NCBI GenBank assembly: GCA_022828105.1
Contig: JAJEJC010000001.1
Span: forward strand, 5,918-69,917
Reading direction: 5' to 3'
DNA length: 64,000 nt
From: Dehalococcoidia bacterium
Lineage (GTDB): Bacteria > Chloroflexota > Dehalococcoidia > Bin125
The notes beneath the pieces were generated by a model that saw only the letters and a program-made list of their open reading frames with translations, searched no databases and had not been told where the DNA came from. Of this stretch, positions 6,336 through 44,840 are shown one piece after another; the stretch's first letter is position 1; each line of letters opens with the position of its first letter. The position numbers and the translations under genes were made by a program.

Positions 6336-6527
6336 ATGCTGCGTCGGTCGCTGCTGACCTCGGCGGTGGTGGGGACGATCCTGGTCGCGATCAACCAGGG
6401 CACGGTGATCGTCGGCGGCGATGGGACATCGGAGTTGGCCTGGAAGATCCCCTTGACCTACTGCGTCCCGTTCCTGGTGGCGAGTTGGGGCGCGCTGGGG
6501 AATGCATATGCGCGGGGTGGGTCCTGA
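6336..6527 (+). CDS. NrtS-family putative nitrate/nitrite transporter-like small membrane protein
   Basis: LRRSLLTSAVVGTILVAINQG ... KIPLTYCVPFLVASWGAL resembles the NrtS two-TM pattern. Alternative starts at 6213 and 6288 cannot be excluded. Confidence 0.55.
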   Translation: MLRRSLLTSAVVGTILVAINQGTVIVGGDGTSELAWKIPLTYCVPFLVASWGALGNAYARGGS

Positions 6528-6559
6528 GTGTCGAGGTACGCTCTCCCGAAGTGGGAGGG

Positions 6560-7450
6560 ATGCCTGTGTCAGTCAGACTTGTGTGCTGGAACATTGCCAA
6601 GCGGATTCAGACGTGGCATGAACTCGTTGCCATGGAGGGCGTCGATGTCGCGCTGTTGCAGGAAGCGGGGACGGTTCCGCCAGAGGTCGCGAGTCGTGTG
6701 ACGCCCGGTCCGGATGCGCACTGGGACTCGCATTTGTGGAACGCGCGCTGGTGGGACGAACAGCGATTCCCTCACCTGCTTGAGCGTTGGCCGAAGGTGG
6801 TCAAGCTGTCGGACCTCGTCGACATTGAGTGGTTCAAGCAGGTCAGCCCGATCAGCCTTGTCGCTCCCGATGAGATTGCCGTGAGTGGCATCGGCACCAT
6901 CGCCGCTGCACGAGTGACTCCTCAGGACTCAGAGACGGAGCCATTCATCGTCATCTCGATGTACGCACGCTGGATGAGTCCGCACCCATCAACGGGAAGC
7001 AAGTGGTCAGTCGGCTACTCGGACGGTTCAGCGCATCGGATCATCTCCGACCTCTCAGCCTTCATCGGCAACGCGGACCCCGCCACACATCGAATCCTCG
7101 CTGCCGGAGACCTCAACACGGTCTTCGGCAGCGAACCGAACGACCCACAAGCGCTCGCGGCTCGAGACCAAACCATCTTCGACCGGATGGAGGCGTTGGG
7201 CCTGGAGCTGCTGGGACCGCGTTCTCCCGGCGGCCGTCAAGCATCCCCAACTCCGGAGGGGCTGCCGGCAGACACGCGTAACGTACCGACGTTCAAATCA
7301 AGCCGTCAGACACCGGAGACTGCGCAGAGCCAACTCGACTACGTGTTCGCGTCGAGAGGCTTCCACGAGCGGATCAAGGTGCGAGCGCTGAACTCTCCCG
7401 AGGAGTGGGGCGCGAGCGACCACTGCCGCCTGCTGATTGAGATCGACTGA
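6560..7450 (+). CDS. endonuclease/exonuclease/phosphatase (EEP) family protein
   Basis: ATG at 6560 behind GGGAGG. N-terminal VCWNI ... LLQEA and C-terminal SDHCRLL are typical EEP catalytic motifs. Lower GC than the flanks. Confidence 0.75.
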   Translation: MPVSVRLVCWNIAKRIQTWHELVAMEGVDVALLQEAGTVPPEVASRVTPGPDAHWDSHLWNARWWDEQRFPHLLERWPKVVKLSDLVDIEWFKQVSPISLVAPDEIAVSGIGTIAAARVTPQDSETEPFIVISMYARWMSPHPSTGSKWSVGYSDGSAHRIISDLSAFIGNADPATHRILAAGDLNTVFGSEPNDPQALAARDQTIFDRMEALGLELLGPRSPGGRQASPTPEGLPADTRNVPTFKSSRQTPETAQSQLDYVFASRGFHERIKVRALNSPEEWGASDHCRLLIEID

Positions 7451-7451
7451 C

Positions 7452-8636
7452 CTAGCGCGGCAGGCCGAGGCCTCGGGTGGCGATGATGTTGCGCATGATC
7501 TCGGAGGTGCCGGCGGCGATGGTGAGCGGGACGGCGTTGAGGTACTCGTCGGGCAGGCGGCCGTGGAGCGGGGCGTGGGCCTGCTCGCCCGAGAGGCCGC
7601 CGGCCAAGCCGAACATGTTGATCATGCCAGCCAGGCGCTGATTGATCATCGTGCCGTAGAGCTTCGACATCGAGGCCTCGTGGTTGGGCACCAGGCCCTG
7701 CGACTGCATCCAGGCGACGCGGTAGGCAAGCCAGCGGCCGACGGTGAACTCGATTTGCAGGTCGGCCAGCTTGTGGCGAACGCGCGGGTCCTCGTCGGGC
7801 CGCGTGCCGTCGGGTCGCGGCTGGCTGGCCAGCTCGGTCAGCTCGCCCAGGAGACGCACGCCGGAGACCACGCGGGAGATGCCGGAGCGCTCGAAGTCGA
7901 GCGTGGTCGTGGCGACGTACCAGCCGCGGTTTTCCTCGCCGACCATGTTCGAGGCGGGGACGCGGACGTCCTCGAAAAAGACCTCGTTGAAGTGGTGGCG
8001 GTTGGCCATATTGACCAGTGGTCGGACGGTGATGCCGGGCGTCTTCATGTCGAGCAGGAAGAAGGAGATGCCGCGGTGCTTGGGCGCATCCGGCTCGGTG
8101 CGGGCGAGCATGAAGATGTAGTCGGCGTGCTGCGCGCCCGAGGTCCAGATCTTCTGGCCGTTGATGATGTAATCGTCGCCGTCGCGGATCGCGCGGGTCT
8201 GCAGCGAGGCGAGGTCGGAGCCGGAGCCGGGCTCGGAGAATCCCTGGCACCACTGGATGTCGGCCGAGCGGATGCGGGGCAGAAAGAACTCCTTCTGCTC
8301 GTCCGAGCCGTACATGATCACCGTCGGTCCGACCCGGTCGACGCCCTGGTTGTAGACCGGCGCGCGGTGGTGGGCCATGGTCTCGTTGAACATCGCCTGG
8401 CGGATCGGTCCCGCGCCGGCGCCGCCGTGCTCTACCGGCCAGCCCAGGGTCAGCCAGCCGCGGTCGGCTAACGCGCGGTGAAATCCGCGGGTAAACTCCC
8501 AGCGCTCGCGGTTGGCCGCGCCGTCCTCGGCCGGTCCCTCGGAGAGGTCGGCCCAGCCCGGAGGCAACTGCTCGCCGAGGAAGTCCAGCACCTCCTCGCG
8601 AAAGGCCACGTCTTCCGCCGAGAATTTGAAGTCCAT
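7452..8636 (-). CDS. acyl-CoA dehydrogenase family protein
   Basis: QGFSEPGSGSDLASL ACAD signature. Start at MDFKFSAEDVAF (ATG 8634-8636). Confidence 0.9.
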   Translation of the reverse strand: MDFKFSAEDVAFREEVLDFLGEQLPPGWADLSEGPAEDGAANRERWEFTRGFHRALADRGWLTLGWPVEHGGAGAGPIRQAMFNETMAHHRAPVYNQGVDRVGPTVIMYGSDEQKEFFLPRIRSADIQWCQGFSEPGSGSDLASLQTRAIRDGDDYIINGQKIWTSGAQHADYIFMLARTEPDAPKHRGISFFLLDMKTPGITVRPLVNMANRHHFNEVFFEDVRVPASNMVGEENRGWYVATTTLDFERSGISRVVSGVRLLGELTELASQPRPDGTRPDEDPRVRHKLADLQIEFTVGRWLAYRVAWMQSQGLVPNHEASMSKLYGTMINQRLAGMINMFGLAGGLSGEQAHAPLHGRLPDEYLNAVPLTIAAGTSEIMRNIIATRGLGLPR

Positions 8637-8712
8637 GATCGTGCTCCCGCCGCGATTGGTCCGTTCGGTCAGATTAACAGAGGGCCCGCGGTTCGCCACT
8701 AGACTCTCTCTC

Positions 8713-11100
8713 ATGCCTGACAGAGCGGGACCACTTGGCGACGTACGGGTGATCGACCTGACCGACGACCGCGGGGTCTATGCGGGGAAGCTGCTGGGCG
8801 ACCTGGGCGCGGAGGTGATCCGGGTCGAACCTGCGGCGGGCGACCCGCTGCGAAGGCGTGCGCCGTTGCATGAGAACGGGTCGTCGCTGTGGCACGCGTT
8901 CTTCGCCAGTTCGCGGCAGTTCACGAGCGGCGATTGGGACGCGGCTGCGGAACTGGCGCAGTCGGCTGACATCGTCTTGGACTGCGAGCGGCTGGCGGAT
9001 CCTGAGGCGCTGCTGGCCGCGAATACGGGGCTGGTGATCGTTGACGTGACCTCGTTCGGCCGCTCGGGTCCGTGGCGCGACTACCTGGCGCCGGGGCTCG
9101 TGGCCGAGGCGCTGGGCGGGGTCGCCGCGACGTCGGGCGACGCCGACACGCCGCCGCTCAAGCTGTACGGCGACCAGTACGCCTTTGTGGCAGGGGTGTA
9201 CGCGGCGATCGGGGCGTTGGCCGCGCTGCGACACGCTCGCGAGACCGGAGCGGGCCAGATCGTGCGGCTGAGCGTGCACGAGGCGCTCTGCACGATCCTC
9301 GAGCACGTCTTGATGTGGGCCTGGTACCACGAGCACGTGCCCTTCGCCGACGGTCCCGTGCTGCCGCGCCAGGGGTCGCTGCACTGGTCCAGCGCATACG
9401 TCGTAATGCAGGCCGTGGGCGGTTCGATCATGATCACGCCGACGCCCGACTTCTCGCGCCAGGTCGCCTGGCTGGTCGAGGAGGGCACCGGGCTGGAGCT
9501 GCTGGACGAGCGCTTCAGCGATCCGGCCAACGTGGCCGAGATGATCATGCTGACGATGCAGACCCTGCGCGAGTGGGTTGCGGGCAAGGAAGTCGAGCTG
9601 TTCTTCCACGAGGCGCAGGCGCGGCACCATCCCTACGGCTGGGTGATGACGACGCCCGAGGTGGCGGAGAATCCGCAGCTTGAGGCGCGCGACTGGTGGA
9701 CCGATTATCCGGCCGGCGGGGCGACTGCAATCGGACCAGGGGCGCCGTATCACTTCTCGGAGACTTCGTGGAGGATCGGCGGAGCGGGGAGCCCCCCTCT
9801 GTCACAACGTGACATCTCCCCCCGCTTCGCGGGGGGAGAGACAGACTCCCATCCGATCTCCCCCCGCTCTGCGGGGGGAGATGCCGAAGGCAGAGGGGGG
9901 CGTCGCACCACAGGTCCCCTCGAAGGCATCCGGGTGCTCGACTTCACGCACGTGCTGGCCGGGCCGTTTGCGACGCGGGTGCTGGGCGACATGGGCGCGG
10001 ACGTGGTCAAGGTGATGTCCGCAACGCGCGTCTCACTTGCCGGCGGTCTGGACAGTCCGTATCACACGATGTGGAATCGCAACAAGCGGGTCTTCCAGCT
10101 CGACCTCAGCCGTACCGAGGCACGCGAGATCGCCCGCAAGCTGGCGGTCGAGGCCGATGTCGTGATCGACAACTTCTCGGTCGGCGTGCTGGATCGCTGG
10201 GAACTGGGTTACGACGCCGTCAGCCCCGACAATCCCGGCGTGGTCTATATCGGCATGTCGGGCATGGGCGTGTCGGGGCCGTGGTCGAACTACGTGACCT
10301 ACGCGCCGACCGTGCATGCGCTGGCCGGGCTGACCTACCTGACCGGCGTGCCGGGTCGCAACGACATCGGGATCGGCTTCAGCTACAACGATCACATGGC
10401 CGGACTGCACGGCGCGGTCGCGATCCTGGCGGCGCTCGAGGCTCGGCGCACGACGGGGCGGGGCCAGCAGATCGATATGAGCCAGTTCGAGGTCGGGGTC
10501 TCGTTCTCCGGCCCGGCGCTGCTGGACTTCTTCGCCAACGGGGTCGAGGCGCAGCCGGTCGGCAACGACCCGCCCTGGGAGGACTGGACGCCGCACGCGA
10601 TTTATCCCTGCCGGGGGAACGACGAATGGTGCGCCATCGCGGTCGTCAACGATGATCAATGGCGGGCGTTATGTCGGCTCATGGAAGCTCACGCCTGGCT
10701 CGACGACGCCTCGTTGGAGACCGCGGCTGGGCGTCGCGCGCGGCAGGCGGAGATCGACGTCCGGATCGGCGAGTGGACACGCACCCAGGATCGATACGAA
10801 CTGATGGATCGCTGCCAGGCGGCCGGCGTGCCGGCCGGCGTCGTGCAGACGGGATTCGATCTGACCGAGCGCGATCCGCAGCTCGCCCACTCGAGGATGT
10901 TCTTCGACTTCGACGACCCGCATCCCGACATTGGTCCGCTCAAGGGCGATCGGCTGCCGCTGCAGTTCGAGCGCACTCCCGCCACCGTCTACAATCGCTC
11001 GGAGGTCTTCGGCGAGTCCAACCTGTCGGTGGCGTCGGACTGGCTGGGAATCGCGGCGCTGGAGGTGGAGCGCTTGGAGTCGGAAGGGGTGATTGAGTAA
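8713..11100 (+). CDS. tandem fusion of two family III (CaiB/BaiF) CoA-transferase units joined by a repeat-derived linker
   Basis: Unit 1 starts GPLGDVRVIDLTDDRGVYAGKLLGDLGAEVIRVEP. Unit 2 starts GPLEGIRVLDFTHVLAGPFATRVLGDMGADVVKV. No stop between them in the track ORF. The linker SPPLSQRDISPRFAGGETDSHPISPRSAGGDAEGRGG is encoded by palindromic repeats. Confidence 0.8.
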   Translation: MPDRAGPLGDVRVIDLTDDRGVYAGKLLGDLGAEVIRVEPAAGDPLRRRAPLHENGSSLWHAFFASSRQFTSGDWDAAAELAQSADIVLDCERLADPEALLAANTGLVIVDVTSFGRSGPWRDYLAPGLVAEALGGVAATSGDADTPPLKLYGDQYAFVAGVYAAIGALAALRHARETGAGQIVRLSVHEALCTILEHVLMWAWYHEHVPFADGPVLPRQGSLHWSSAYVVMQAVGGSIMITPTPDFSRQVAWLVEEGTGLELLDERFSDPANVAEMIMLTMQTLREWVAGKEVELFFHEAQARHHPYGWVMTTPEVAENPQLEARDWWTDYPAGGATAIGPGAPYHFSETSWRIGGAGSPPLSQRDISPRFAGGETDSHPISPRSAGGDAEGRGGRRTTGPLEGIRVLDFTHVLAGPFATRVLGDMGADVVKVMSATRVSLAGGLDSPYHTMWNRNKRVFQLDLSRTEAREIARKLAVEADVVIDNFSVGVLDRWELGYDAVSPDNPGVVYIGMSGMGVSGPWSNYVTYAPTVHALAGLTYLTGVPGRNDIGIGFSYNDHMAGLHGAVAILAALEARRTTGRGQQIDMSQFEVGVSFSGPALLDFFANGVEAQPVGNDPPWEDWTPHAIYPCRGNDEWCAIAVVNDDQWRALCRLMEAHAWLDDASLETAAGRRARQAEIDVRIGEWTRTQDRYELMDRCQAAGVPAGVVQTGFDLTERDPQLAHSRMFFDFDDPHPDIGPLKGDRLPLQFERTPATVYNRSEVFGESNLSVASDWLGIAALEVERLESEGVIE
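9792..9902. repeat. MITE/REP-like palindromic element (two TCTCCCCCCGC-loop-GCGGGGGGAGA hairpins; 10-bp terminal inverted repeats)
   Basis: Hairpins at 9815-9839 and 9857-9881. CCCCCCTCTG (9792-9801) is the reverse complement of CAGAGGGGGG (9891-9900). The tail GATGCCGAAGGCAGAGGGGGGCG recurs at 39337-39359. Confidence 0.8.
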
Positions 11101-11115
11101 TGCGCTGCGCGATCC

Positions 11116-11997
11116 TTACGGCTCGTCCAGGTCAATGGCGATCGCAAACTCTGGCCAGCGGCTTCTGAAGTTCCGGCACTCCAGAGTCTCACGGTCGATT
11201 CTGCAGTGTCGAATCATCGTGATGATGCAGCTACTTTTCAGGTAGATGCCGCCGTTGTCGTCCAGCGTATGGAGACACTCGGAGAGCGCTGCCGGAGGAC
11301 CGCGCCACTCGTAGATGCCTTCCCAGTCAGGCTCCACCTGGCCTTCGATCGTCTCGAACGTCGCGGTGCTCTCCATGTAGCCTTCGGCTCCGTAGAGGAC
11401 CGTGAACAGGATGTCCGAGGAGTACACCCAGTTGTGGTGGCCGATGTCGTTCGGGAAGAACCGTCGTTGGGGATACAGCGGGTCACTCAACGCCGGTCCG
11501 TCCTCCGAGTATGGCAAGCCGTAGCGAAGCGCAAACTCTACTGCGTTCCTTGTGGGATGAACTCTGGCATATATGTGGACGATGGTTGTCTCGAACTGCT
11601 GCTGCAGTTCTGCTTCCAACTTAGCGTTGGTATCGGTGTAGGGAAGGGACTGGCACGGGAATCCTCGAGATCTGAGCCAGTCGTGATGCGGCGTGCGCAG
11701 CGGGAAGTATCGCTGTTCGGGCAACAGCAGCGTCCCTGGCCTGCCGCTCCGATCGAGCAACTGGTATCCAAACTCGACTCGATCGTCCTCAGTCAGGCGC
11801 GCCGCGATCCTGACCGCGAAGTCCACCGACTGGACTTCCGGCCGAGCGTCGTCAAGGACCACCCCAGGATCGGAATCCAATGAGTCACCGTCATCGGCAA
11901 TGGTGATTAGGGCAGGAGCGGCCGCAATCGACAGGACCAGAGCGGCCAAGACTGCGAGCATACGCTGGGGCAACGAACTGTGGCTCAGGCTAGACAT
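11116..11997 (-). CDS. secreted hypothetical protein with internal domain duplication and Cys-rich C-terminus
   Basis: Signal-like MLAVLAALVLSIAAAPA. Repeated blocks RVEFGYQLL...RYFPLRTPHHDW and AVEFALRYGL...RRFFPNDIGHHNW. Lower GC. Confidence 0.6.
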   Translation of the reverse strand: MSSLSHSSLPQRMLAVLAALVLSIAAAPALITIADDGDSLDSDPGVVLDDARPEVQSVDFAVRIAARLTEDDRVEFGYQLLDRSGRPGTLLLPEQRYFPLRTPHHDWLRSRGFPCQSLPYTDTNAKLEAELQQQFETTIVHIYARVHPTRNAVEFALRYGLPYSEDGPALSDPLYPQRRFFPNDIGHHNWVYSSDILFTVLYGAEGYMESTATFETIEGQVEPDWEGIYEWRGPPAALSECLHTLDDNGGIYLKSSCIITMIRHCRIDRETLECRNFRSRWPEFAIAIDLDEP

Positions 11998-16721: not shown

Positions 16722-16836
16722 GAGGCTCAGCGTCGCACCATTCTCCGGCCTGAGCAAACGGGTGAGATACGATCTGTTCCAGTTCCCGCTTCACGCGGGA
16801 ACCTGCTCGGGCCCGTCTCCCTGGGGATGTCCACTC

Positions 16837-37527: not shown

Positions 37528-38504
37528 TGCTCAGCCGAGTCGCCGAGAACCTCTTCTGGCTCGGACGCTACCTGGAGCGGGCCGAGAACATCGCCCGCAT
37601 GGCGCGCGTCGAGCACGAGGTGTCGCTGGAGAGCGGCCAGGAAATCTGGCACAGCCTGGTCAGCACGACGGCGTCGAATCAGCTCTTCTGGGACACGCTC
37701 GCCGACTCGCCCGACCTGACCCACTCCGAGTTCCTGATCTACTCGATGCAGAATCCCGCCTCGCTGCGCGCCACGCTGGTCCGCGCGCGCGAGCTGGCGC
37801 GCGGACTGCGCGAGCACATCTCGCGGGAGGTCTGGGAGGAGATCAACGCGCTCTATCTCTACCTCGCCCTGCGCAAGGAGTACATCGCCAGCGACATCCA
37901 ACAGTTCTGCACCGAGACCCAGCGGCGCACCCAGACCATCCTCGGCCTCTACGACAACACGGTGTTGCGCGACGAGGGGCGCGAGTGGTTCCGCTGCGGG
38001 ATGTATCTCGAACGCGCCGACATGACCAGCCGGATCATCGACGCCAAGTACCACATCCTGCTGCCCCGCGGCGACGACGTCGGCGGACCGTTCGACCGCT
38101 TCCAGTGGATGGCCGTGCTGCGATCCGCCTCGGCCCGCGAGGCCTACTGGCGGATGGGCAACAGCGAGGTTGACGGCATCGTCGTCGCCGATCTGCTGAT
38201 CTTCTCGCAGGAGTTCCCGCGCAGCCTCGCCTTCTGCGTGCAGGCGTTGCAGCGGCACTTCCAGCAGGCGACCGGCGAGACGCCCAAGCGGCGCCGAGCC
38301 GGCGCAGAGCGCGGCATCACGCTGCTGCACCTGGACATCGGCGCGCGCGACATGGAGCAACTCGTCGACGATGGACTGCACGAGTTCATCGACGACTTCC
38401 AGCAGCGCCTGATCGAGATCGACCGTTCGATCACCGACGACATCTTTCGCGCCGAACCCAACGCCGAGCAGTCGCAGCAACTGGCTACAGCGGAGCAGGG
38501 CTGA
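37527..38504 (+). CDS. alpha-E domain protein (DUF403)
   Basis: MLSRVAENLFWLGRYLERAEN N-terminus is characteristic. Start overlaps the upstream stop. Confidence 0.85.
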   Translation: MLSRVAENLFWLGRYLERAENIARMARVEHEVSLESGQEIWHSLVSTTASNQLFWDTLADSPDLTHSEFLIYSMQNPASLRATLVRARELARGLREHISREVWEEINALYLYLALRKEYIASDIQQFCTETQRRTQTILGLYDNTVLRDEGREWFRCGMYLERADMTSRIIDAKYHILLPRGDDVGGPFDRFQWMAVLRSASAREAYWRMGNSEVDGIVVADLLIFSQEFPRSLAFCVQALQRHFQQATGETPKRRRAGAERGITLLHLDIGARDMEQLVDDGLHEFIDDFQQRLIEIDRSITDDIFRAEPNAEQSQQLATAEQG

Positions 38505-38505
38505 G

Positions 38506-39243
38506 ATGACCTTTTGCCTGGGCATCAAGTGCCGCGACGGCCTGATTGCGATCGCCGACACCCGCATCACCAGCGGCTCCGAGGTCTCGACGGCCAAGAA
38601 GATCGCCGTCCACCGCGGCGACGGACACACGATGTTCATCCTCACCAGCGGACTGCGCTCGGTGCGCGACAAGGCGATCACCTACTTCGCCGAGCGGCTG
38701 CGGCGCAACGAGCACGAACTGACCCGCTCCTACCAGGCCGTCAACGCGCTGGCCGAGGAAATGCGGCGCGTCTACAACGAGGACAACGAGTGGCTGCTCA
38801 AGGCCGGACTGCACTTCGACCTGCACTGCATCGTCGGCAGCCAGATGACCGAGGACGATGCGCCGCATCTATTCCTGCTCTATCCGCAAGGCAACTGGGT
38901 TGAAGTCTCGCGCGGCACGCCCTACCTGATCATCGGCGAGACCCGCTTTGGCAAGCCGATCCTCGATCGCACCCTGCGCTATGAGGCCTCGCTGGAAGAA
39001 TCGCTGCGGCTGGGCGTGCTCTCGTTCAACTCGACCGAGGCCAGCTCCGCCGATGTCGGGCCGCCGATGGACGCCGTCGTCTACCGCGCCGACTCCTTTG
39101 AAGCCGCCGAGCACCGCTTCAGCGCCGATGAGCTGGAGCCGATCTCCAGCTTCTGGCAGCAAGCCATCGAACACGCCGTCGAGCAGTCCGCCGCCCCCTT
39201 CGCCCCCCTCGCCCAATCCATCGGCCTCGACCCCGCGGACTGA
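38506..39243 (+). CDS. Anbu-type proteasome beta-subunit homolog (Ntn hydrolase)
   Basis: MTFCLGIKCRDGLIAIADTRITSG has Thr directly after the initiator Met. Operon context with cpATP-grasp and alpha-E. Confidence 0.8.
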   Translation: MTFCLGIKCRDGLIAIADTRITSGSEVSTAKKIAVHRGDGHTMFILTSGLRSVRDKAITYFAERLRRNEHELTRSYQAVNALAEEMRRVYNEDNEWLLKAGLHFDLHCIVGSQMTEDDAPHLFLLYPQGNWVEVSRGTPYLIIGETRFGKPILDRTLRYEASLEESLRLGVLSFNSTEASSADVGPPMDAVVYRADSFEAAEHRFSADELEPISSFWQQAIEHAVEQSAAPFAPLAQSIGLDPAD

Positions 39244-39301
39244 CCAGTTCCTGCTTCACGCAGGAACCCGCCCCCAGTTCCTGCTTCACGCAGGAACCCG
39301 C
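39244..39301. repeat. 2 tandem copies (period 30) of CCAGTTCCTGCTTCACGCAGGAACCCGC, each an 8-bp-stem hairpin with loop TTCAC
   Basis: Hairpins GTTCCTGC-TTCAC-GCAGGAAC at 39247-39267 and 39277-39297, immediately after the Anbu stop. Confidence 0.85.
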
Positions 39302-39311
39302 TCCGTTCCCC

Positions 39312-39359
39312 TCTCCCCCCGCGCCTCGCGGGGGGAGATGCCGCAGGCAGAGGGGGGCG
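39312..39359. repeat. REP-like hairpin of the same family as 9792-9902
   Basis: TCTCCCCCCGC-GCCTC-GCGGGGGGAGA followed by TGCCGCAGGCAGAGGGGGGCG. One mismatch in the tail relative to 9882-9902. Confidence 0.8.
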
Positions 39360-39384
39360 CCCAACCTGTGCGACAATCCAACCC

Positions 39385-42189
39385 ATGACCACCGAAACCG
39401 CACGCGAGGAAGCCGTCAACCCGCTGCTCGGACAGCTCCTCCGACAGCGCGGCATCCCCGCCCGCGCCGAACGACGCAGCCGCGGCGACACGCCCGACAT
39501 CCGCTACGAACTGCCGACCGGCGAACTCGTCCTGCTCGAATGCAAGTGGGAGTCCGGTCACGCCGACCTGCTCGACCAGCTCAACGACCGACTGACCGAC
39601 TTCCCCGACGCAATCGCCCGCGTCGGCGTCCTCTATCCCGACGCATTCAAGCACGTCGACGATATCCAGGACGAACTCGAACACACCCTCAACCTCCAGT
39701 GGTTCCTCCACAGTTCCCGACAGCAGACCTACGCCGACCCACCCATCCGCGACGGCGGTCTGGATCAACTCGCCGACCATCTCCGGCCGATCCTCCTGGA
39801 GGTTGAGGGCTACGACCTCATCACCCAGGCCGCAGACGACGTGCGACTCGCACTGGAAGACGCCGCCGCCTCCATCAACAAGCACGCCAACATTGGACGC
39901 CGAATCTCCGAGGTGATTGCCGAAGCGGATAAGGAGAGCGACCGCGCGGCCGCCCTGCGCATCGGCTGCCTCGTGCTATTCAATGCGCTCGCGTTTCAGG
40001 ATCGCCTCTCCGCCCTCAATGAAGACGTGCCAACGGCGCAGGAAGTGCTTAACGCCGGCGCAGCCGACTTGCGCGACATCTGGCTCACGATCTGTCGCGA
40101 GATTGACTACGTCCCAGTGTTCGAGATCGCCGCAGAGATCCTGGGCATCCTCAGCGATGCCCCTGGCAACATCCAGAACGGCGCCATCGTGCCACTGGTT
40201 AGGGCTGTAAGAAAGACCGCTCGAATCGAGGGGCACGATCTTGCGGGCCGTCTGTTCCACACCCTGCTTTCCGACGCCAAGTTCACAGGCGCCTACTACA
40301 CGTCCGTCCCAGCTGCCACCATCCTCTCCCGTCTGGTCTTCGAGGACTGGCCGAAAGGCGTTGACTGGTCCAACCACGAGCTCCCGTCAGCGCTCAACAT
40401 CGCCGACCTTGCCTGCGGTACTGGCACCTTGCTCATGGCAGTTGCCGCCGAAGCCGAACGCCGGCATCTGAATGCAGGGGGAAGCGACGCACGCCAGTTG
40501 CACAAGGAGCTAGTCGAACAGGCTTTGCACGGCTACGACGTGCAGCTCTCTGCGATCCACTTTGCTGCCACAAGCCTGGCCATGCTCAACCCTCACATTG
40601 AGTTCGACCGCATGAACCTCTACGTCATGCCACTCGGTGTCAACGGCGACCAGGTCTCGCTCGGCTCTCTGGACTTCCTCGAAGAGGGCAAAGCCCCAAT
40701 CCAGCATTCTCTATCAGCCCATGCCTTCGGCCTGTCCGAGCAGGCGGCGGAGCAAGTGACCGGTGGAGGTCTGGAGTCTTCCCCGACTCAGCAGACTGCA
40801 GAACTGCCCAAACTCGATCTTGCGATCATGAATCCGCCGTTTACACGCGCCGGACTGATGCTGTTCGGGATGTTGCCGCAAGCCGATCGCCGCAAGGTTC
40901 AGCAGGAGCTATCGCGCCGATTGCGCTCACGCAGCGGCTCCGCGATCGCTGGCCTCGGTGCGGCCTTCGTCGCCACCGCCGCGCCGAGGCTGCAACCGGG
41001 CGAAGGCCGCCTGGCGTTGGTGTTGCCCGCCACGCTCTGTACTGGGTCATCCTGGCAACAGACCCGCTCGTTGATTGAGCGCGACTTCAAGCTCGATATG
41101 GTCATCGCCTCACACGATCCCCTGCGCTGGAACTTCTCCGACAGCACCGACCTCTCTGAAGTCCTGCTGATCGCCACCAGGCGCGAGGTCGGCGAGATCG
41201 GCATGCAACACCGCACCACCTACGTCAATCTGTGGCAGAACCCCGACAGCGTGCTCGACGCCCAGCGAACCGCCGACGTCATCGCCCGAACCTCGCCCGC
41301 CGAAATCGAGTCGCTTGGTTGTGCGCTGCTCAGCGTCGGAGGACAACACGTCGGCGAAGCGACGTCGATCCCTATGTCGCGCTACAACAACCGCAAGTGG
41401 GCCGCCATCCAGTTCTCCCGCGCCGATCTCACCCGTGCCGCCTTGAGCCTGACTGAGACCGGCGAAATCAGCCTGCCAGGCTCAAGCCGAGCCGCCACGA
41501 TCTCCCTCTGCGAACTCTTAGACATCGCAACAATCGGCCCTGATCGCCGGCGCTTGATCGACGGATTCGAGCGGACGTCAACCATCACGGCCTATCCGAT
41601 GGTGGAAGGTCATGACACGGACGACCGCACGTCAATGACTTGTGCACCAGACGCCTACCTCTCCCCGCTCGCTGTCCCCAAAGGCGGGCAGCGTCCTGGC
41701 TACGGCGACCGGCTCTGGCAGATGTCGAGCCGCCTGCTCGTCGCAGAGCGACTTTGGCTGAACACGACTCGCGTTTTAGCCATGCATTGCGATCAAGCGG
41801 TGCTCTCCAACGTCTGGTGGGAGGTGCGGGTAGAGGACGAAGAGACTGAGAAGGCACTTGCTGTCTGGTTGAACCCAACGCTAGGCATCATCTCGCTCCT
41901 AGGGCAGCGCACGAGCACGCGTGCTGGCTGGGTCGCCAGCAAGAAAGCCGACCTGGGGAAGCTACCTGTCCTCGATCCGCGAGAGCTCTATCCAGAGCAG
42001 CGATCCCAGCTCGCTGACCTGTTCGATTCAAGCGCCCACCTCAGCTTCGAGCGCCTACCCGCAATGGTCGACTGCCCCGCCCGCAAAGCCCTGGACGACG
42101 GCCTCTCCGAGATTCTGGACTTGCCCGACTTGGCCGTGCTGAGGCGCTTGTTGGCGTCGGAGCCGGTGGTCTCGAATCAGCGGTTGTGA
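39385..42189 (+). CDS. single-chain PD-(D/E)xK nuclease-like / N6-adenine DNA methyltransferase / TRD fusion (type IIG/IIL-like R-M architecture)
   Basis: N-terminus TPDIRYEL...LVLLECKWE (D...ExK). MTase motifs GAYYTSVP, DLACGTGTLL, GYDVQ, IMNPPFTRAG. About 330-aa C-terminal tail with LNPTLGIISLL...LPVLDP pattern of TRDs. No obvious SD. Unusually C-ending codon bias. Confidence 0.7.
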   Translation: MTTETAREEAVNPLLGQLLRQRGIPARAERRSRGDTPDIRYELPTGELVLLECKWESGHADLLDQLNDRLTDFPDAIARVGVLYPDAFKHVDDIQDELEHTLNLQWFLHSSRQQTYADPPIRDGGLDQLADHLRPILLEVEGYDLITQAADDVRLALEDAAASINKHANIGRRISEVIAEADKESDRAAALRIGCLVLFNALAFQDRLSALNEDVPTAQEVLNAGAADLRDIWLTICREIDYVPVFEIAAEILGILSDAPGNIQNGAIVPLVRAVRKTARIEGHDLAGRLFHTLLSDAKFTGAYYTSVPAATILSRLVFEDWPKGVDWSNHELPSALNIADLACGTGTLLMAVAAEAERRHLNAGGSDARQLHKELVEQALHGYDVQLSAIHFAATSLAMLNPHIEFDRMNLYVMPLGVNGDQVSLGSLDFLEEGKAPIQHSLSAHAFGLSEQAAEQVTGGGLESSPTQQTAELPKLDLAIMNPPFTRAGLMLFGMLPQADRRKVQQELSRRLRSRSGSAIAGLGAAFVATAAPRLQPGEGRLALVLPATLCTGSSWQQTRSLIERDFKLDMVIASHDPLRWNFSDSTDLSEVLLIATRREVGEIGMQHRTTYVNLWQNPDSVLDAQRTADVIARTSPAEIESLGCALLSVGGQHVGEATSIPMSRYNNRKWAAIQFSRADLTRAALSLTETGEISLPGSSRAATISLCELLDIATIGPDRRRLIDGFERTSTITAYPMVEGHDTDDRTSMTCAPDAYLSPLAVPKGGQRPGYGDRLWQMSSRLLVAERLWLNTTRVLAMHCDQAVLSNVWWEVRVEDEETEKALAVWLNPTLGIISLLGQRTSTRAGWVASKKADLGKLPVLDPRELYPEQRSQLADLFDSSAHLSFERLPAMVDCPARKALDDGLSEILDLPDLAVLRRLLASEPVVSNQRL

Positions 42190-42264
42190 GCTTCCAGGCG
42201 GATCGCCACCTGTGAAGGCCATGGCTTGATTCGCCTATGAGTAACTGACCTGAGGAGAGGGATC

Positions 42265-43545
42265 ATGACCCAAGCCAGACGCCCCCGAGTTGCTGCGATC
42301 GGCATGAGTGATGCCCAGCTTGAGTCCATCTCTATGCTCTGCGGCGACCTCCGACATGCTGACACTTTGGCCGAGTATCTCCAGCGTTACAACTGGAGAG
42401 AGACAGACGTTGTCGTCGCCGAGGAGCTCGGATATGATCAAGTCGATCCTGGCGTTAATCTCATGATTGCCGGTCATACCAATCTGTCCTGGAGAGACAC
42501 TTATAGCACTCGAACGCGTCGGATTCAGCACAGAGCGTATACAAGACGTAGCAACACTGAGAGAGAAGTCAGCGTACCTAACTCTTGCCCAGACAACTAC
42601 AATTCACTCGCTGTGCGGTTGTCCAATCAGATCGCCAATGGCAAGGAACCACCACCTGTGTTAACGACTTCCCGTGAGGATAACACTGCCATCATCGAGA
42701 CGACATCGGGTCATCCTGTCGCGTTGCGTATTGAGTTACCACAACGAGAAGTCGGCGATGCTGTCACGCTCAATCGCCCAACAGCCCTGCTGCTTCCGCG
42801 AGTGTACAATCTCGCCGCCTGGTTCACAGCATTCCTAGTTGATGTCAACGTGCACGATCCTCGTCGTGTGCCCCAGCCACCACCACGCCTCCAGAGAGCC
42901 TCGGACTGGTATACGCCGAAAGAGAGAGCGCTGGCGGCGGAGATTGATAGAGCATCCGTAGACATCAGGCAAATGGTCGAGAAACGCGATCTGCTTCAGG
43001 AAGAACTAGTCAGTGCTGGTAAGGGGGCCGATCGAGAGACACGAAGAGTGATCTGGGAGGACGGTGAAGAGCTGGTCGCCGCGGTCAGCGAGATTCTGTC
43101 TGACCTCGGCTTTCAGGTTCAAGATATGGATGCTGGGCTAGATCCGAATGAGCAAAGGCATGAAGACCTACGGTTGACGGTGCCGCAGAGGCGCAACTGG
43201 GAAGGGATGGTTGAGGTCAAGGGCTACACCAACGGCACTCGAACGAACGACGCCCGCCAGATTCGTGAGCATCGTGAACACTACATCTCTGAGAAGGGTC
43301 AGCCTCCTGACTTGACTCTGTGGATCGTAAATCCATTCCGCCACAAGGATCCCTCGTCTCGCCCATCTCCCAGCAGCAACGTAGGAGAGGCTGCCTCAAA
43401 CGTCGGCGCGGTTCACGTCTTGGCGACAGACTTGTACCGGCTGTGGGTCCTCGCGCAGATAAGAGACTTGGACGCGGGTGACGTAGTACAGGAGCTGATC
43501 GACGCCACTCCGGGTCTCTGGAAGTCCACAGCGCTGGGCGACTGA
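42265..43545 (+). CDS. hypothetical partner protein with coiled-coil segment and C-terminal PD-(D/E)xK-like core
   Basis: Strong SD GAGGAGAGGG. C-terminus LVAAVSEILSDLGFQVQDMD...HEDLRLTV...MVEVKGYTNG (helix, D, ExK). AGA/AGG-rich, AT-ending codons unlike the flanks. Confidence 0.6.
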   Translation: MTQARRPRVAAIGMSDAQLESISMLCGDLRHADTLAEYLQRYNWRETDVVVAEELGYDQVDPGVNLMIAGHTNLSWRDTYSTRTRRIQHRAYTRRSNTEREVSVPNSCPDNYNSLAVRLSNQIANGKEPPPVLTTSREDNTAIIETTSGHPVALRIELPQREVGDAVTLNRPTALLLPRVYNLAAWFTAFLVDVNVHDPRRVPQPPPRLQRASDWYTPKERALAAEIDRASVDIRQMVEKRDLLQEELVSAGKGADRETRRVIWEDGEELVAAVSEILSDLGFQVQDMDAGLDPNEQRHEDLRLTVPQRRNWEGMVEVKGYTNGTRTNDARQIREHREHYISEKGQPPDLTLWIVNPFRHKDPSSRPSPSSNVGEAASNVGAVHVLATDLYRLWVLAQIRDLDAGDVVQELIDATPGLWKSTALGD

Positions 43546-43603
43546 CTGCCCGCTGCACCCCAAGCCAAGGTCGGTCCGGCGAATGGGTGAGCGACTGGGC
43601 GAA

Positions 43604-43669
43604 GCCGAGCGGGTCCCTGAGCGGAGTCAGGGACCGGAGGCCGAGCGGGTCCCTGCGTGAAGCGGGGAC
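43604..43669. repeat. REP-like repeats: GCCGAGCGGGTCCCTG x2 (period 36) with hairpins 43612-43635 and 43649-43669
   Basis: GGTCCCTGA-GCGGAG-TCAGGGACC and GTCCCTGC-GTGAA-GCGGGGAC. The latter is the inverted counterpart (loop GTGAA vs TTCAC) of the 39247 hairpin. Confidence 0.75.
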
Positions 43670-43736
43670 TTGGATGGTTGTAGGCTGGCGGGGACTGCGG
43701 CGTGGGCCGGGGGCAGCGTAAGCGGGCGTACAACTC

Positions 43737-44840
43737 GTGGCCAACCGACCGCTCGCTCAACTCCGCGAGCGTCGCCCTGAGTGGGCCGACGCGGGCGAGA
43801 CGCCGTTGCCCGGACTGTTGGGCATTCTCGCCTGGGCGACGCTGTCCGCCGCGCTGCTGGCGCTGGTCGCCGCCAACCTCGTCCTGGGCGCGTTCGACGT
43901 CGAGTTCCCGCGCATCGTGGGGCTGCTGTTCGACAAGGCCGGCATCGATCTGGGCATCGAGTACACGCGCCGCGAGGAGGCCGTGGTCTGGGTGATCCGG
44001 CTGCCGCGCATGGTCATGGCGGCGCTGGTCGGGGCCGGACTCGGCGTCTCCGGAGCGGCGCTGCAGGGGTTGTTCCGCAACCCGCTGGCCGATCCGGGCC
44101 TGATCGGCGTCTCCAGCGGCGCCGCGTTCGCCGTCGCGTTGTCGATCGTGCTCGGGATCACTGCCTGGGGATCGTTCGTGCAGCCGCTGGCGGCGTTCAT
44201 CGGCGGACTGACGCTGACCTTCCTGATCTACGCCTTCGCGCGGCGCAGCGGACGCCAGCAGATGGCGACGATGCTGCTGGTCGGCATCGCCGTCAACGCG
44301 CTGCTCGCCGCCGCGATCAGCTTCATCCTCTCCTTCTCCAACGACGCCGAGCTGCGCGACATCGTGTTCTGGACGCTGGGCAGCCTGGCCGGCTCGATCT
44401 GGAGCTATGTCCTCGCCGCCGCGCCGCTGATCCTCTTCGCCGTGGCGGTCCTGATCCGCCAGTCGGGCGCGCTCAACCTGCTCTCGCTCGGCGACGCCGA
44501 GGCCCGCCACCTGGGACTGCGCGTCCAGCGCTCGCAACTGTTTATCGTCACCGCCGCCGCGATGGCCACGGGCGCCGGCGTGGCGGTTGCCGGCGTGGTC
44601 GGATTCGTCGGCCTGATCGCGCCGCACATGGTGCGCCTCGCGGTCGGTCCCGATCACCGCCGCCTAATGCCGGCCAGCGCCATCGCCGGGGCCATCCTGG
44701 TGCTGGGCGCGGATCTTGCGGCGCGCACGATCGTCGCGCCGTCCGAGTTGCCCCTGGGCGTGCTCACGGCGCTGATCGGCACGCCGGTCTTCCTCTTCCT
44801 AATCGACCGCGCGCGCCGCAGCCTGGCCTCGGGCTTCTAG
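43737..44840 (+). CDS. FecCD-family ABC transporter permease (iron-siderophore/cobalamin type)
   Basis: LPRMVMAALVGAGLGVSGAALQGLFRNPLADPGLIGVSSGA is the hallmark FecCD region. GTG start. No cognate ATPase or binding protein adjacent. Confidence 0.85.
   Translation: MANRPLAQLRERRPEWADAGETPLPGLLGILAWATLSAALLALVAANLVLGAFDVEFPRIVGLLFDKAGIDLGIEYTRREEAVVWVIRLPRMVMAALVGAGLGVSGAALQGLFRNPLADPGLIGVSSGAAFAVALSIVLGITAWGSFVQPLAAFIGGLTLTFLIYAFARRSGRQQMATMLLVGIAVNALLAAAISFILSFSNDAELRDIVFWTLGSLAGSIWSYVLAAAPLILFAVAVLIRQSGALNLLSLGDAEARHLGLRVQRSQLFIVTAAAMATGAGVAVAGVVGFVGLIAPHMVRLAVGPDHRRLMPASAIAGAILVLGADLAARTIVAPSELPLGVLTALIGTPVFLFLIDRARRSLASGF

Follow-up and report, generated by a model that had tools for sequence, protein, structure and literature searches.

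The stretch of DNA analysed here (the window) comprises 64,000 nucleotides (nt) of contig JAJEJC010000001.1 from a Dehalococcoidia bacterium (Chloroflexota; assembly GCA_022828105.1, positions 5,918 to 69,917), and it carries two adjacent genes, termed gene 1 and gene 2 below, that each code for a protein with a nuclease-like domain. A first-pass annotation made from the letters alone had proposed an undescribed defence module of two genes, with a type IIG-like nuclease-methyltransferase fusion acting alongside a second nuclease. The open reading frames (ORFs), the 75-nt spacer, the strong Shine-Dalgarno sequence and the peptide motifs that it quoted are all present in the window and its translations, and the motifs of both genes are conserved in homologs (alignments of 32 gene-1 and 33 gene-2 sequences). 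The locus is composed as follows:

39385-42189, + strand: gene 1, an ORF of 934 amino acids (aa)
42190-42264, + strand: intergenic spacer between gene 1 and gene 2, 75 nt, with the Shine-Dalgarno sequence GAGGAGAGGG inside
42265-43545, + strand: gene 2, an ORF of 426 aa

The Shine-Dalgarno sequence occupies 42253-42262 and ends 2 nt ahead of the gene-2 ATG. The fold of the spacer is ordinary (z = -1.6 in an RNA fold test) and no terminator-like site was seen in a scan of 42190-42264. As the first-pass annotation had it, the flanks are of housekeeping type, with CP_ATPgrasp, Alpha-E and proteasome-type genes upstream, and a gene for a FecCD permease followed by one for a hybrid histidine kinase/response regulator downstream. 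Both genes are foreign by composition: GC content is 0.56-0.63 across the pair vs 0.65-0.71 in the flanks, and GC content at third codon positions (GC3) is 0.77 in gene 1 and 0.60 in gene 2 vs 0.84-0.93 in five flanking genes. AGA and AGG together make up 14 of the 43 Arg codons of gene 2, and are not used at all in three upstream genes and FecCD. The departure from the flanks claimed earlier stands for the GC and GC3 of both genes and for AGA/AGG in gene 2, but not for two particulars of gene 1, which does not favour GAA (25 GAA vs 35 GAG among its Glu codons) and is not strongly C-ending (a share of 0.49, inside the flank range of 0.44-0.58). The pair had no match in PHROGs or in a phage DNA collection, and an Rfam scan of 38500-44500 gave none either.

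Linkage between the two gene families was assessed by tblastn, all-against-all clustering and profile hidden Markov models in 31 gene-2 loci, each taken with 10 kb on either side, and in 39 gene-1 loci with 8 kb on either side, to which the loci of the closest homologs were added (retrieved loci are numbered with an L below). The gene-2 loci were found in genomes by an alignment-based scan, a single-protein pattern scan having given nothing, and a scan of JGI metagenomes for such loci returned just one short contig. None of the three tools revealed a gene-2 relative in the 40 gene-1 loci (0/40), and a gene-1 relative was found in a single gene-2 locus (1/31; L005, 28% identity), 3 kb off and on the opposite strand. 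The closest gene-1 homolog (L072, 79%) is flanked by a luciferase-like gene and a TIR gene, without gene 2, while the closest gene-2 homologs (L073 and L075, both 61%) share an unrelated syntenic context without gene 1. On the complete chromosomes retrieved, the gene-1 set and the gene-2 set do not overlap. In a set of 112 ORFs that flank gene-2 homologs, even the most frequent Pfam family is represented just 4 times; PADLOC-type neighbours are scattered and comprise methyltransferases, SoFic, DndB, one IIG enzyme, one HKD-Snf2 protein and PDC candidates. Gene-1 homologs are mostly solitary, with no conserved neighbour in 40 loci. Since relatives of the two genes co-occur in 0/40 and 1/31 loci, the latter non-adjacent, and no neighbour family recurs, there is no conserved linkage, an outcome that the first-pass annotation had itself named as refuting, and the proposed two-gene module does not hold up.

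The site itself differs between related genomes. Close orthologs of the proteasome-type gene occur in many genomes, and in the closest of these (L194, proteasome-type protein 95%) an unrelated 580-aa ORF sits ahead of the kinase gene, at 10031-11773 on the + strand and without a PHROGs match. In L196 (proteasome-type protein 93%) about 700 bp lie at this site, and in L202 a different, Eco57I-like gene is found there on the other strand. The site is a variable hotspot. The FecCD gene of the window (43737-44840, + strand) has a native-like GC3 of 0.93; because its homolog in L206 (1-729) is instead upstream of the CP_ATPgrasp/Alpha-E cluster, and because FecCD is missing from this site in the closest genomes, these arrangements suggest a local rearrangement around it.

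Altogether, the best explanation, to which we give a probability of roughly 0.7, is that the locus is a variable hotspot (a 'defence islet') in which two single-gene systems were acquired independently and do not make up a module. The hotspot downstream of the conserved CP_ATPgrasp/Alpha-E/proteasome-type cluster would have gained gene 1 and gene 2 separately. Several points weigh against this explanation. The two genes are co-oriented and 75 nt apart with no terminator-like site between them, and they may be co-transcribed and cooperate in this one genome. Retrieval was pattern-based and took one genome per species, so that rare linked cases were possibly missed. In the window, L015 and L075, a co-oriented DNA methyltransferase gene lies directly upstream of the gene-2 family member, which could hint at a loose association, though the three cases are compatible with ordinary clustering in defence islands. 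Finally, the structure model of gene 1 is of low confidence, and Foldseek gave no convincing structural match for the N-terminal domain of gene 2. The tight spacing, the co-orientation without a terminator and the foreign composition of both genes would also suit an obligate defence module, in which the IIG-like enzyme works with the second nuclease. Such a module is nevertheless extremely improbable given the counts of 0/40 and one non-adjacent paralogue in 31 loci, the unlinked closest homologs, the unequal GC3 of the two genes (0.77 vs 0.60) and the normally solitary state of both families.

Gene 1 can be divided into four regions:

39385-39789, + strand: gene 1 residues 1-135, PD-ExK nuclease domain, from conservation and the AlphaFold2 (AF2) fold
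39790-40254, + strand: gene 1 residues 136-290, helical arm (AF2 helices at 136-298; aligned in the BpuSI and DrdV matches)
40255-41244, + strand: gene 1 residues 291-620, gamma-class N6-adenine methyltransferase core, with motifs X, I and IV
41245-42186, + strand: gene 1 residues 621-934, C-terminal tail in the place of a target-recognition domain, assigned by position only

The nuclease residues D38, E52 and K54 are encoded at 39496-39498, 39538-39540 and 39544-39546; all of the 32 gene-1 sequences share P37, D38 and K54, and at least 90% have E52. The methyltransferase motifs follow in the order X (GAYYTS, 302-307), I (DLACGTG, 341-347) and IV (NPPF, 483-486), and in the same alignment G302/Y304/Y305/T306/S307, D341/C344/G345/T346/G347 and N483/P484/P485 are invariant. 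The AF2 model of gene 1 is poor (mean predicted local distance difference test score, pLDDT, of 57) and its alignment shallow in diversity; we used from it the N-terminal 280 residues, which are reasonable, and the overall Foldseek ranking. In this part the nuclease block folds as alpha-beta-beta-beta-alpha (block pLDDT about 60-87), D38 begins strand 2, E52 and K54 finish strand 3, and a long helical region comes next. The top Foldseek match of this model of mean pLDDT 57 is BpuSI (2.5e-8 over 738 columns), with further matches to BsaXI, DrdV, PglX and LlaBIII. These matches, together with the invariant motifs, bear out the first-pass description of gene 1 as a IIG-like nuclease-methyltransferase fusion.

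Profile searches detect the methyltransferase core, at residues 273-600, through PADLOC (MTase_II, 3e-9; REase_MTase_IIG, 8e-5), NCBIfam (MAD2, 5e-5) and Pfam (MTS at 1e-3; N6_Mtase at 12.2 bits, below its cut-off of 20.4), and hhalign aligns gene 1 with an Eco57I/MmeI-type enzyme over motifs X and I (E = 1e-5). There was no match to the Pfam families Eco57I, MmeI_Mtase and TaqI_C, and HMMER searches against solved structures, with the single protein and with a profile, returned noise and no solved relative. The C-terminal 314 aa are 60% conserved among homologs, have a pLDDT below 50 at residues 668-863 and lack a TaqI_C match in Pfam; by position only, this tail is a candidate recognition domain. 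We conclude that gene 1 codes for a divergent restriction-modification (R-M) enzyme of the single-chain, type IIG/IIL-like kind, with a predicted activity to match.

The MmeI family is built from an N-terminal PD-ExK domain, a helical arm, gamma-class motifs X then I-VIII and a C-terminal recognition domain, and has no flanking methyltransferase (PMC2731913). Gene 1 has its nuclease, helical arm, methyltransferase core and C-terminal tail in the same order as the type IIG/IIL enzymes MmeI, BpuSI, DrdV and Eco57I, and as in MmeI its Asp stands at the start of strand 2 and its ExK at the end of strand 3 (PMC2731913). The likeness extends to the neighbourhood, MmeI-type enzymes being solitary without a flanking methyltransferase and the gene-1 family likewise lacking a conserved neighbour in the 40 loci. 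Gene 1 differs from MmeI and other IIG enzymes in a very divergent sequence that stays under the Pfam cut-offs, in motif X (YYTS vs YTP in type IIG/IIL enzymes) and in distribution: unlike the named IIG/IIL enzymes, the family is nearly confined to sponge-type Chloroflexota metagenome-assembled genomes (MAGs). More than 1875 homologs at 60-79% identity were found, nearly all in sponge-type Chloroflexota/Dehalococcoidia MAGs, and every one of them is annotated as hypothetical or has no name.

A second branch of the gene-1 superfamily, at 24-28% identity, is present in L005 (13898-16801, - strand), L051 (11143-14046, + strand), L049 (4733-7864, + strand) and L202 (10121-12664, - strand), the L005, L051 and L202 paralogues being 27-28% identical to gene 1. 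Against the Pfam Eco57I cut-off of 25.3 bits, the paralogues of L202 (33.7) and L051 (27.0) pass, that of L005 falls just short (24.4) and that of L049 has no match. In L049 and L051 the paralogue stands in tandem with a gene-1 homolog. The L005 paralogue has E-A-E in place of the E-C-K of gene 1, and for this reason its nuclease may be inactive. Gene-1 homologs are also found split into two or three ORFs, in L065, L066, L067, L068 and L071 (around 8000-10800), and these are probably pseudogenes. Chromosome OZ247430.1 carries two intact gene-1 homologs (L044 and L050).

The AF2 model of gene 2 (mean pLDDT 85) is confident and shows an N-terminal domain (N-domain), a helix of 40 residues and, at the C-terminus, a further alpha/beta domain:

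42265-42864, + strand: gene 2 residues 1-200, alpha/beta N-domain of Rossmann/flavodoxin-like topology (AF2)
42898-43035, + strand: gene 2 residues 212-257, helix 212-215 plus long helix 218-257 (AF2)
43060-43542, + strand: gene 2 residues 266-426, FokI/Mrr-like PD-(D/E)xK domain (Foldseek and conservation)

Gene 2 had no match in Pfam, PADLOC, NCBIfam or PHROGs (PADLOC-DB v2 gave none at E ≤ 1), and HMMER against solved structures, run with the single protein and with a profile, returned noise and no solved relative. It has at least 386 close homologs, and an exhaustive profile search (E ≤ 1e-3) delimits a family of 1382 cluster representatives at 50% identity. D289, E300, D301, E317 and K319 are invariant in the 33 aligned sequences, and the catalytic residues, with E317-V-K319 as the ExK, are mostly retained across the wide family. 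In Foldseek the C-terminal domain matches FokI (2fok; 6e-4, probability 1.0, root-mean-square deviation (rmsd) 4.4 A), alongside Cdn1, the R2 endonuclease, Avs4 and EndoMS, and viral proteins labelled 'restriction endonuclease' or Mrr-like also match it. The PD-(D/E)xK core that the first-pass annotation had read at the C-terminus of gene 2 is thus supported both by a FokI-like fold and by invariant catalytic residues. FokI-type nuclease domains act as dimers when they cut double-stranded DNA, for which reason the long helix (218-257 in the model) probably joins two such domains and is a possible coiled-coil dimerisation element.

The N-domain carries a polar cluster (R8, C26, R30, E46-T47-D48, N97-E99-R100-E101 and T146-S148) that is invariant in close homologs, while the wide family retains only P7/R8, D48 and P178 of the domain. 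Its Foldseek matches are weak and of class I amidotransferase-like and flavodoxin-like type (TM about 0.2, rmsd about 11 A). Because the fold matches are weak and the cluster is conserved among close relatives only, the N-domain may be a diverging recognition or sensor domain. An identity as a class I glutamine amidotransferase was considered and dropped on the same TM and rmsd values, on the position of the invariant Cys26, which is at a helix end and not at a nucleophile elbow, and on the loss of the polar cluster in the wider family.

Set beside known systems, the C-terminal domain of gene 2 shares the fold of FokI and Mrr (2fok, E = 6e-4) and their D..(E)D..ExK pattern. FokI has a DNA-recognition domain and Mrr an N-terminal winged helix, neither of which gene 2 possesses; its nuclease is instead joined through the long helix to an alpha/beta N-domain that is not a known reader, and there is no match to the Pfam family Mrr_cat. 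With Can2/Card1 and Cdn1 (described in PMC12825302) gene 2 has a common layout of about 400-450 aa, a Rossmann-like N-terminal part and a C-terminal PD-(D/E)xK domain, although the structural match to Cdn1 spans only about 150 columns. CARF and SAVED families were not matched in gene 2 by Pfam, PADLOC or NCBIfam, and cas and cyclase families are absent from the 25 commonest Pfam families among the neighbours of gene-2 homologs. Like Shedu (SduA) and other single-gene nuclease defence systems with variable N-domains, gene 2 is solitary, combines a conserved PD-(D/E)xK effector with an N-terminal part that diverges fast, and has relatives in defence islands and mobile elements, but it does not match DUF4263/Shedu or any PADLOC model.

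The genomic contexts of the gene-2 family are of a similar kind. All of the distant homologs examined (8/8) have mobile elements or defence genes around them. The Arthrobacter homolog is in an integrase/relaxase element, those of L079 and L278 are in resolvase elements (the latter also a D5-primase element), and others are found with a type I R-M cluster in Pseudarthrobacter, with GmrSD in Actinotalea and in a RES/AbiJ island next to an integrase in Microbacterium; RHS loci carry distant homologs as well. A 563-aa hypothetical protein encoded between IS1 copies on the Klebsiella pneumoniae plasmid NZ_CP095134.1 (L076, 5632-7323, + strand) shows remote homology (hhalign E = 2.5e-5) to the half of gene 2 that comprises the helix and the nuclease, and has no match in Pfam or PADLOC. 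In sponge-type genomes, some gene-2 loci have SoFic, DndB, type I/IIG R-M or PADLOC candidates close by. In L006, a Tepidiformaceae MAG of a sponge-type bacterium, a eukaryote-like gene of the animal haem peroxidase family (6611-8950, + strand; Pfam E = 1e-150) lies one gene upstream of the gene-2 homolog, with an ORF at 8970-9923 (- strand) between the two.

The methyltransferases found upstream of gene-2 family members raise another reading, namely that gene 2 is a restriction-type nuclease that serves any upstream methyltransferase, or else a modification-dependent (type IV-like) enzyme, in which case its place behind gene 1 would be functional although the partner changes from locus to locus. 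The three upstream genes are co-oriented and unrelated (gene 1, an Eco57I/MmeI-type IIG gene in L015 and an N6_N4 methyltransferase-HNH gene in L075), a type I R-M system or GmrSD is close by in L275 and L276, and the fold is FokI/Mrr-like. Yet in most loci no methyltransferase lies within two genes of the family member, N6_Mtase accounts for 2 of the 112 flanking ORFs, and many family members lie between housekeeping genes (e.g. LepA/EF-G, a luciferase-like gene). The methyltransferase of L075 is missing from L073 despite the synteny of the two loci. Foldseek found no known modified-base reader fold (SRA, PUA-like or winged helix) in the N-domain, and since R-M genes are what defence islands most often contain, some are to be expected near gene-2 homologs. 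We therefore regard this reading as unlikely. The L075 gene codes for a 480-aa N6_N4 DNA methyltransferase-HNH nuclease fusion (6360-7802, + strand) directly upstream of the gene-2 homolog, and in the otherwise syntenic L073 three small ORFs replace it.

The mobile contexts also bear on whether gene 2 is an immune gene at all. Integrases, relaxases, resolvases, a D5 primase, IS1 and RHS toxins adjoin gene-2 homologs and no PADLOC model covers the family, as would be the case for a mobile-element maintenance function, a recombination/repair nuclease or a selfish, toxin-like traveller. In sponge-type genomes, however, the gene often stands alone among housekeeping genes with no mobility genes near, and the combination of a variable N-domain, a conserved nuclease and co-location with R-M, Abi, SoFic and Dnd genes is typical of defence genes; a non-immune role for gene 2 is rather doubtful. 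Owing to the mobile and defence contexts and to the architecture of the protein, we favour a solitary, sensor-gated nuclease in defence or inter-element conflict, and gene 2 is a plausible single-gene nuclease defence candidate by its predicted domains and neighbourhoods.

Although gene-1 homologs have no conserved neighbour, in five loci a convergent TIR gene lies 3-37 nt from the stop codon of the gene-1 homolog:

10848-11759 of L043, - strand: TIR gene
10827-11642 of L046, - strand: TIR gene
10807-11727 of L063, - strand: TIR gene
10833-11768 of L067, - strand: TIR gene
10843-11901 of L072, - strand: TIR gene

The TIR genes are of CAP12/Pycsar type and match the PADLOC single-gene candidate PDC-S35 (E = 7e-85 for L043), and the two closest homologs of gene 1 are among the loci so flanked. 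At least three of the TIR proteins are barely related, those of L063 and L072 being barely related or unrelated to the others. Because these barely related proteins occur in several flanking contexts, repeated insertion of TIR genes 3' of gene-1 homologs is suggested, as is a tendency of this 3' flank to collect other defence genes. The TIR pattern is the sole hint of anything beyond chance co-location. A bolder version of the proposal made below for the gene-2 family would have gene-1-type enzymes also recruit interchangeable 3' effectors functionally, TIR elsewhere and the gene-2 nuclease here, and a swappable effector slot of this kind, backing up the restriction enzyme, would account for the position of the five TIR genes, for the inclusion of the two closest homologs and for the diversity of the TIR proteins. 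But such a neighbour is lacking in about 34 of the 40 gene-1 loci, the TIR gene is itself a single-gene candidate (PDC-S35), and within one syntenic group gene 1 is retained whether or not the TIR gene is there. The pattern is explained by the way defence genes cluster in islands, and an effector slot is very unlikely.

Hairpin repeats resembling repetitive extragenic palindromes (REP-like) lie on both sides of the gene pair:

39244-39303, + strand: two tandem 30-nt REP-like hairpin units, GTTCCTGC-TTCAC-GCAGGAAC (RNA fold z = -5.0)
43601-43673, - strand: a second pair of REP-like hairpin units, inverted relative to the first and located 3' of gene 2 (RNA fold z = -4.6)

The first two units sit between the proteasome-type gene and gene 1, outside both. 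The hairpin recurs in the window at 16782-16806 (+ strand), with compensatory stem changes, and such changes also mark its consensus, GTYCCYGC-TTCAC-GCRGGRAC. In sponge-type Dehalococcoidia genomes it was found in at least 111 stretches (loci L083-L162), with many copies per genome and often as inverted pairs 76 nt apart, and it has no Rfam match. The two flanking repeats are 87% complementary and were considered as termini of a mobile cassette, which is ruled out by their dispersal in the window and in related genomes; no copy was seen in the other gene-1 and gene-2 loci.

The gene structures, the conservation of the catalytic residues, the folds, the missing synteny and the mobile or defence contexts are direct results of the analysis. 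From them we infer the enzymatic activities of both systems, the dimerisation and trigger of gene 2 and an anti-phage role for each as follows. The tail and methyltransferase core of gene 1 would, by homology, recognise a DNA site, methylate adenine at N6 and mark host DNA, while the PD-ExK domain on its helical arm would cut unmarked DNA at a distance, with no partner required. In gene 2, the fast-evolving N-domain would be a sensor or recognition module and the long helix, presumably, a dimerisation element. The nuclease would stay inactive or off target until the N-domain meets its cue, which might be a ligand, a phage component or a DNA feature; the paired nuclease domains would then cleave DNA.

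The new two-gene architecture fails, and the locus adds no new kind of R-M layout. What it brings out are two families. Gene 1 represents a large, unannotated branch of type IIG/IIL-like enzymes that current Pfam and NCBIfam models overlook; sponge-type Chloroflexota have it in abundance, and censuses of defence genes would count too few of its members. Gene 2 represents a large, uncharacterised family of solitary FokI/Mrr-like nucleases that recur in mobile elements and defence islands and range over Chloroflexota, Actinomycetota and other phyla, with the remote relative on the Klebsiella plasmid. At less than even odds, we tentatively propose that this family constitutes a new and widespread single-gene system directed against phages or plasmids, whose sensor domain has not been described before. 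Because it has cultured hosts (Arthrobacter, Pseudarthrobacter, Curtobacterium, Microbacterium and Cellulomonas), the family is directly testable. If gene 2 is immune, it would add to the defence catalogue one more single-gene nuclease system, possibly with a new sensor fold.

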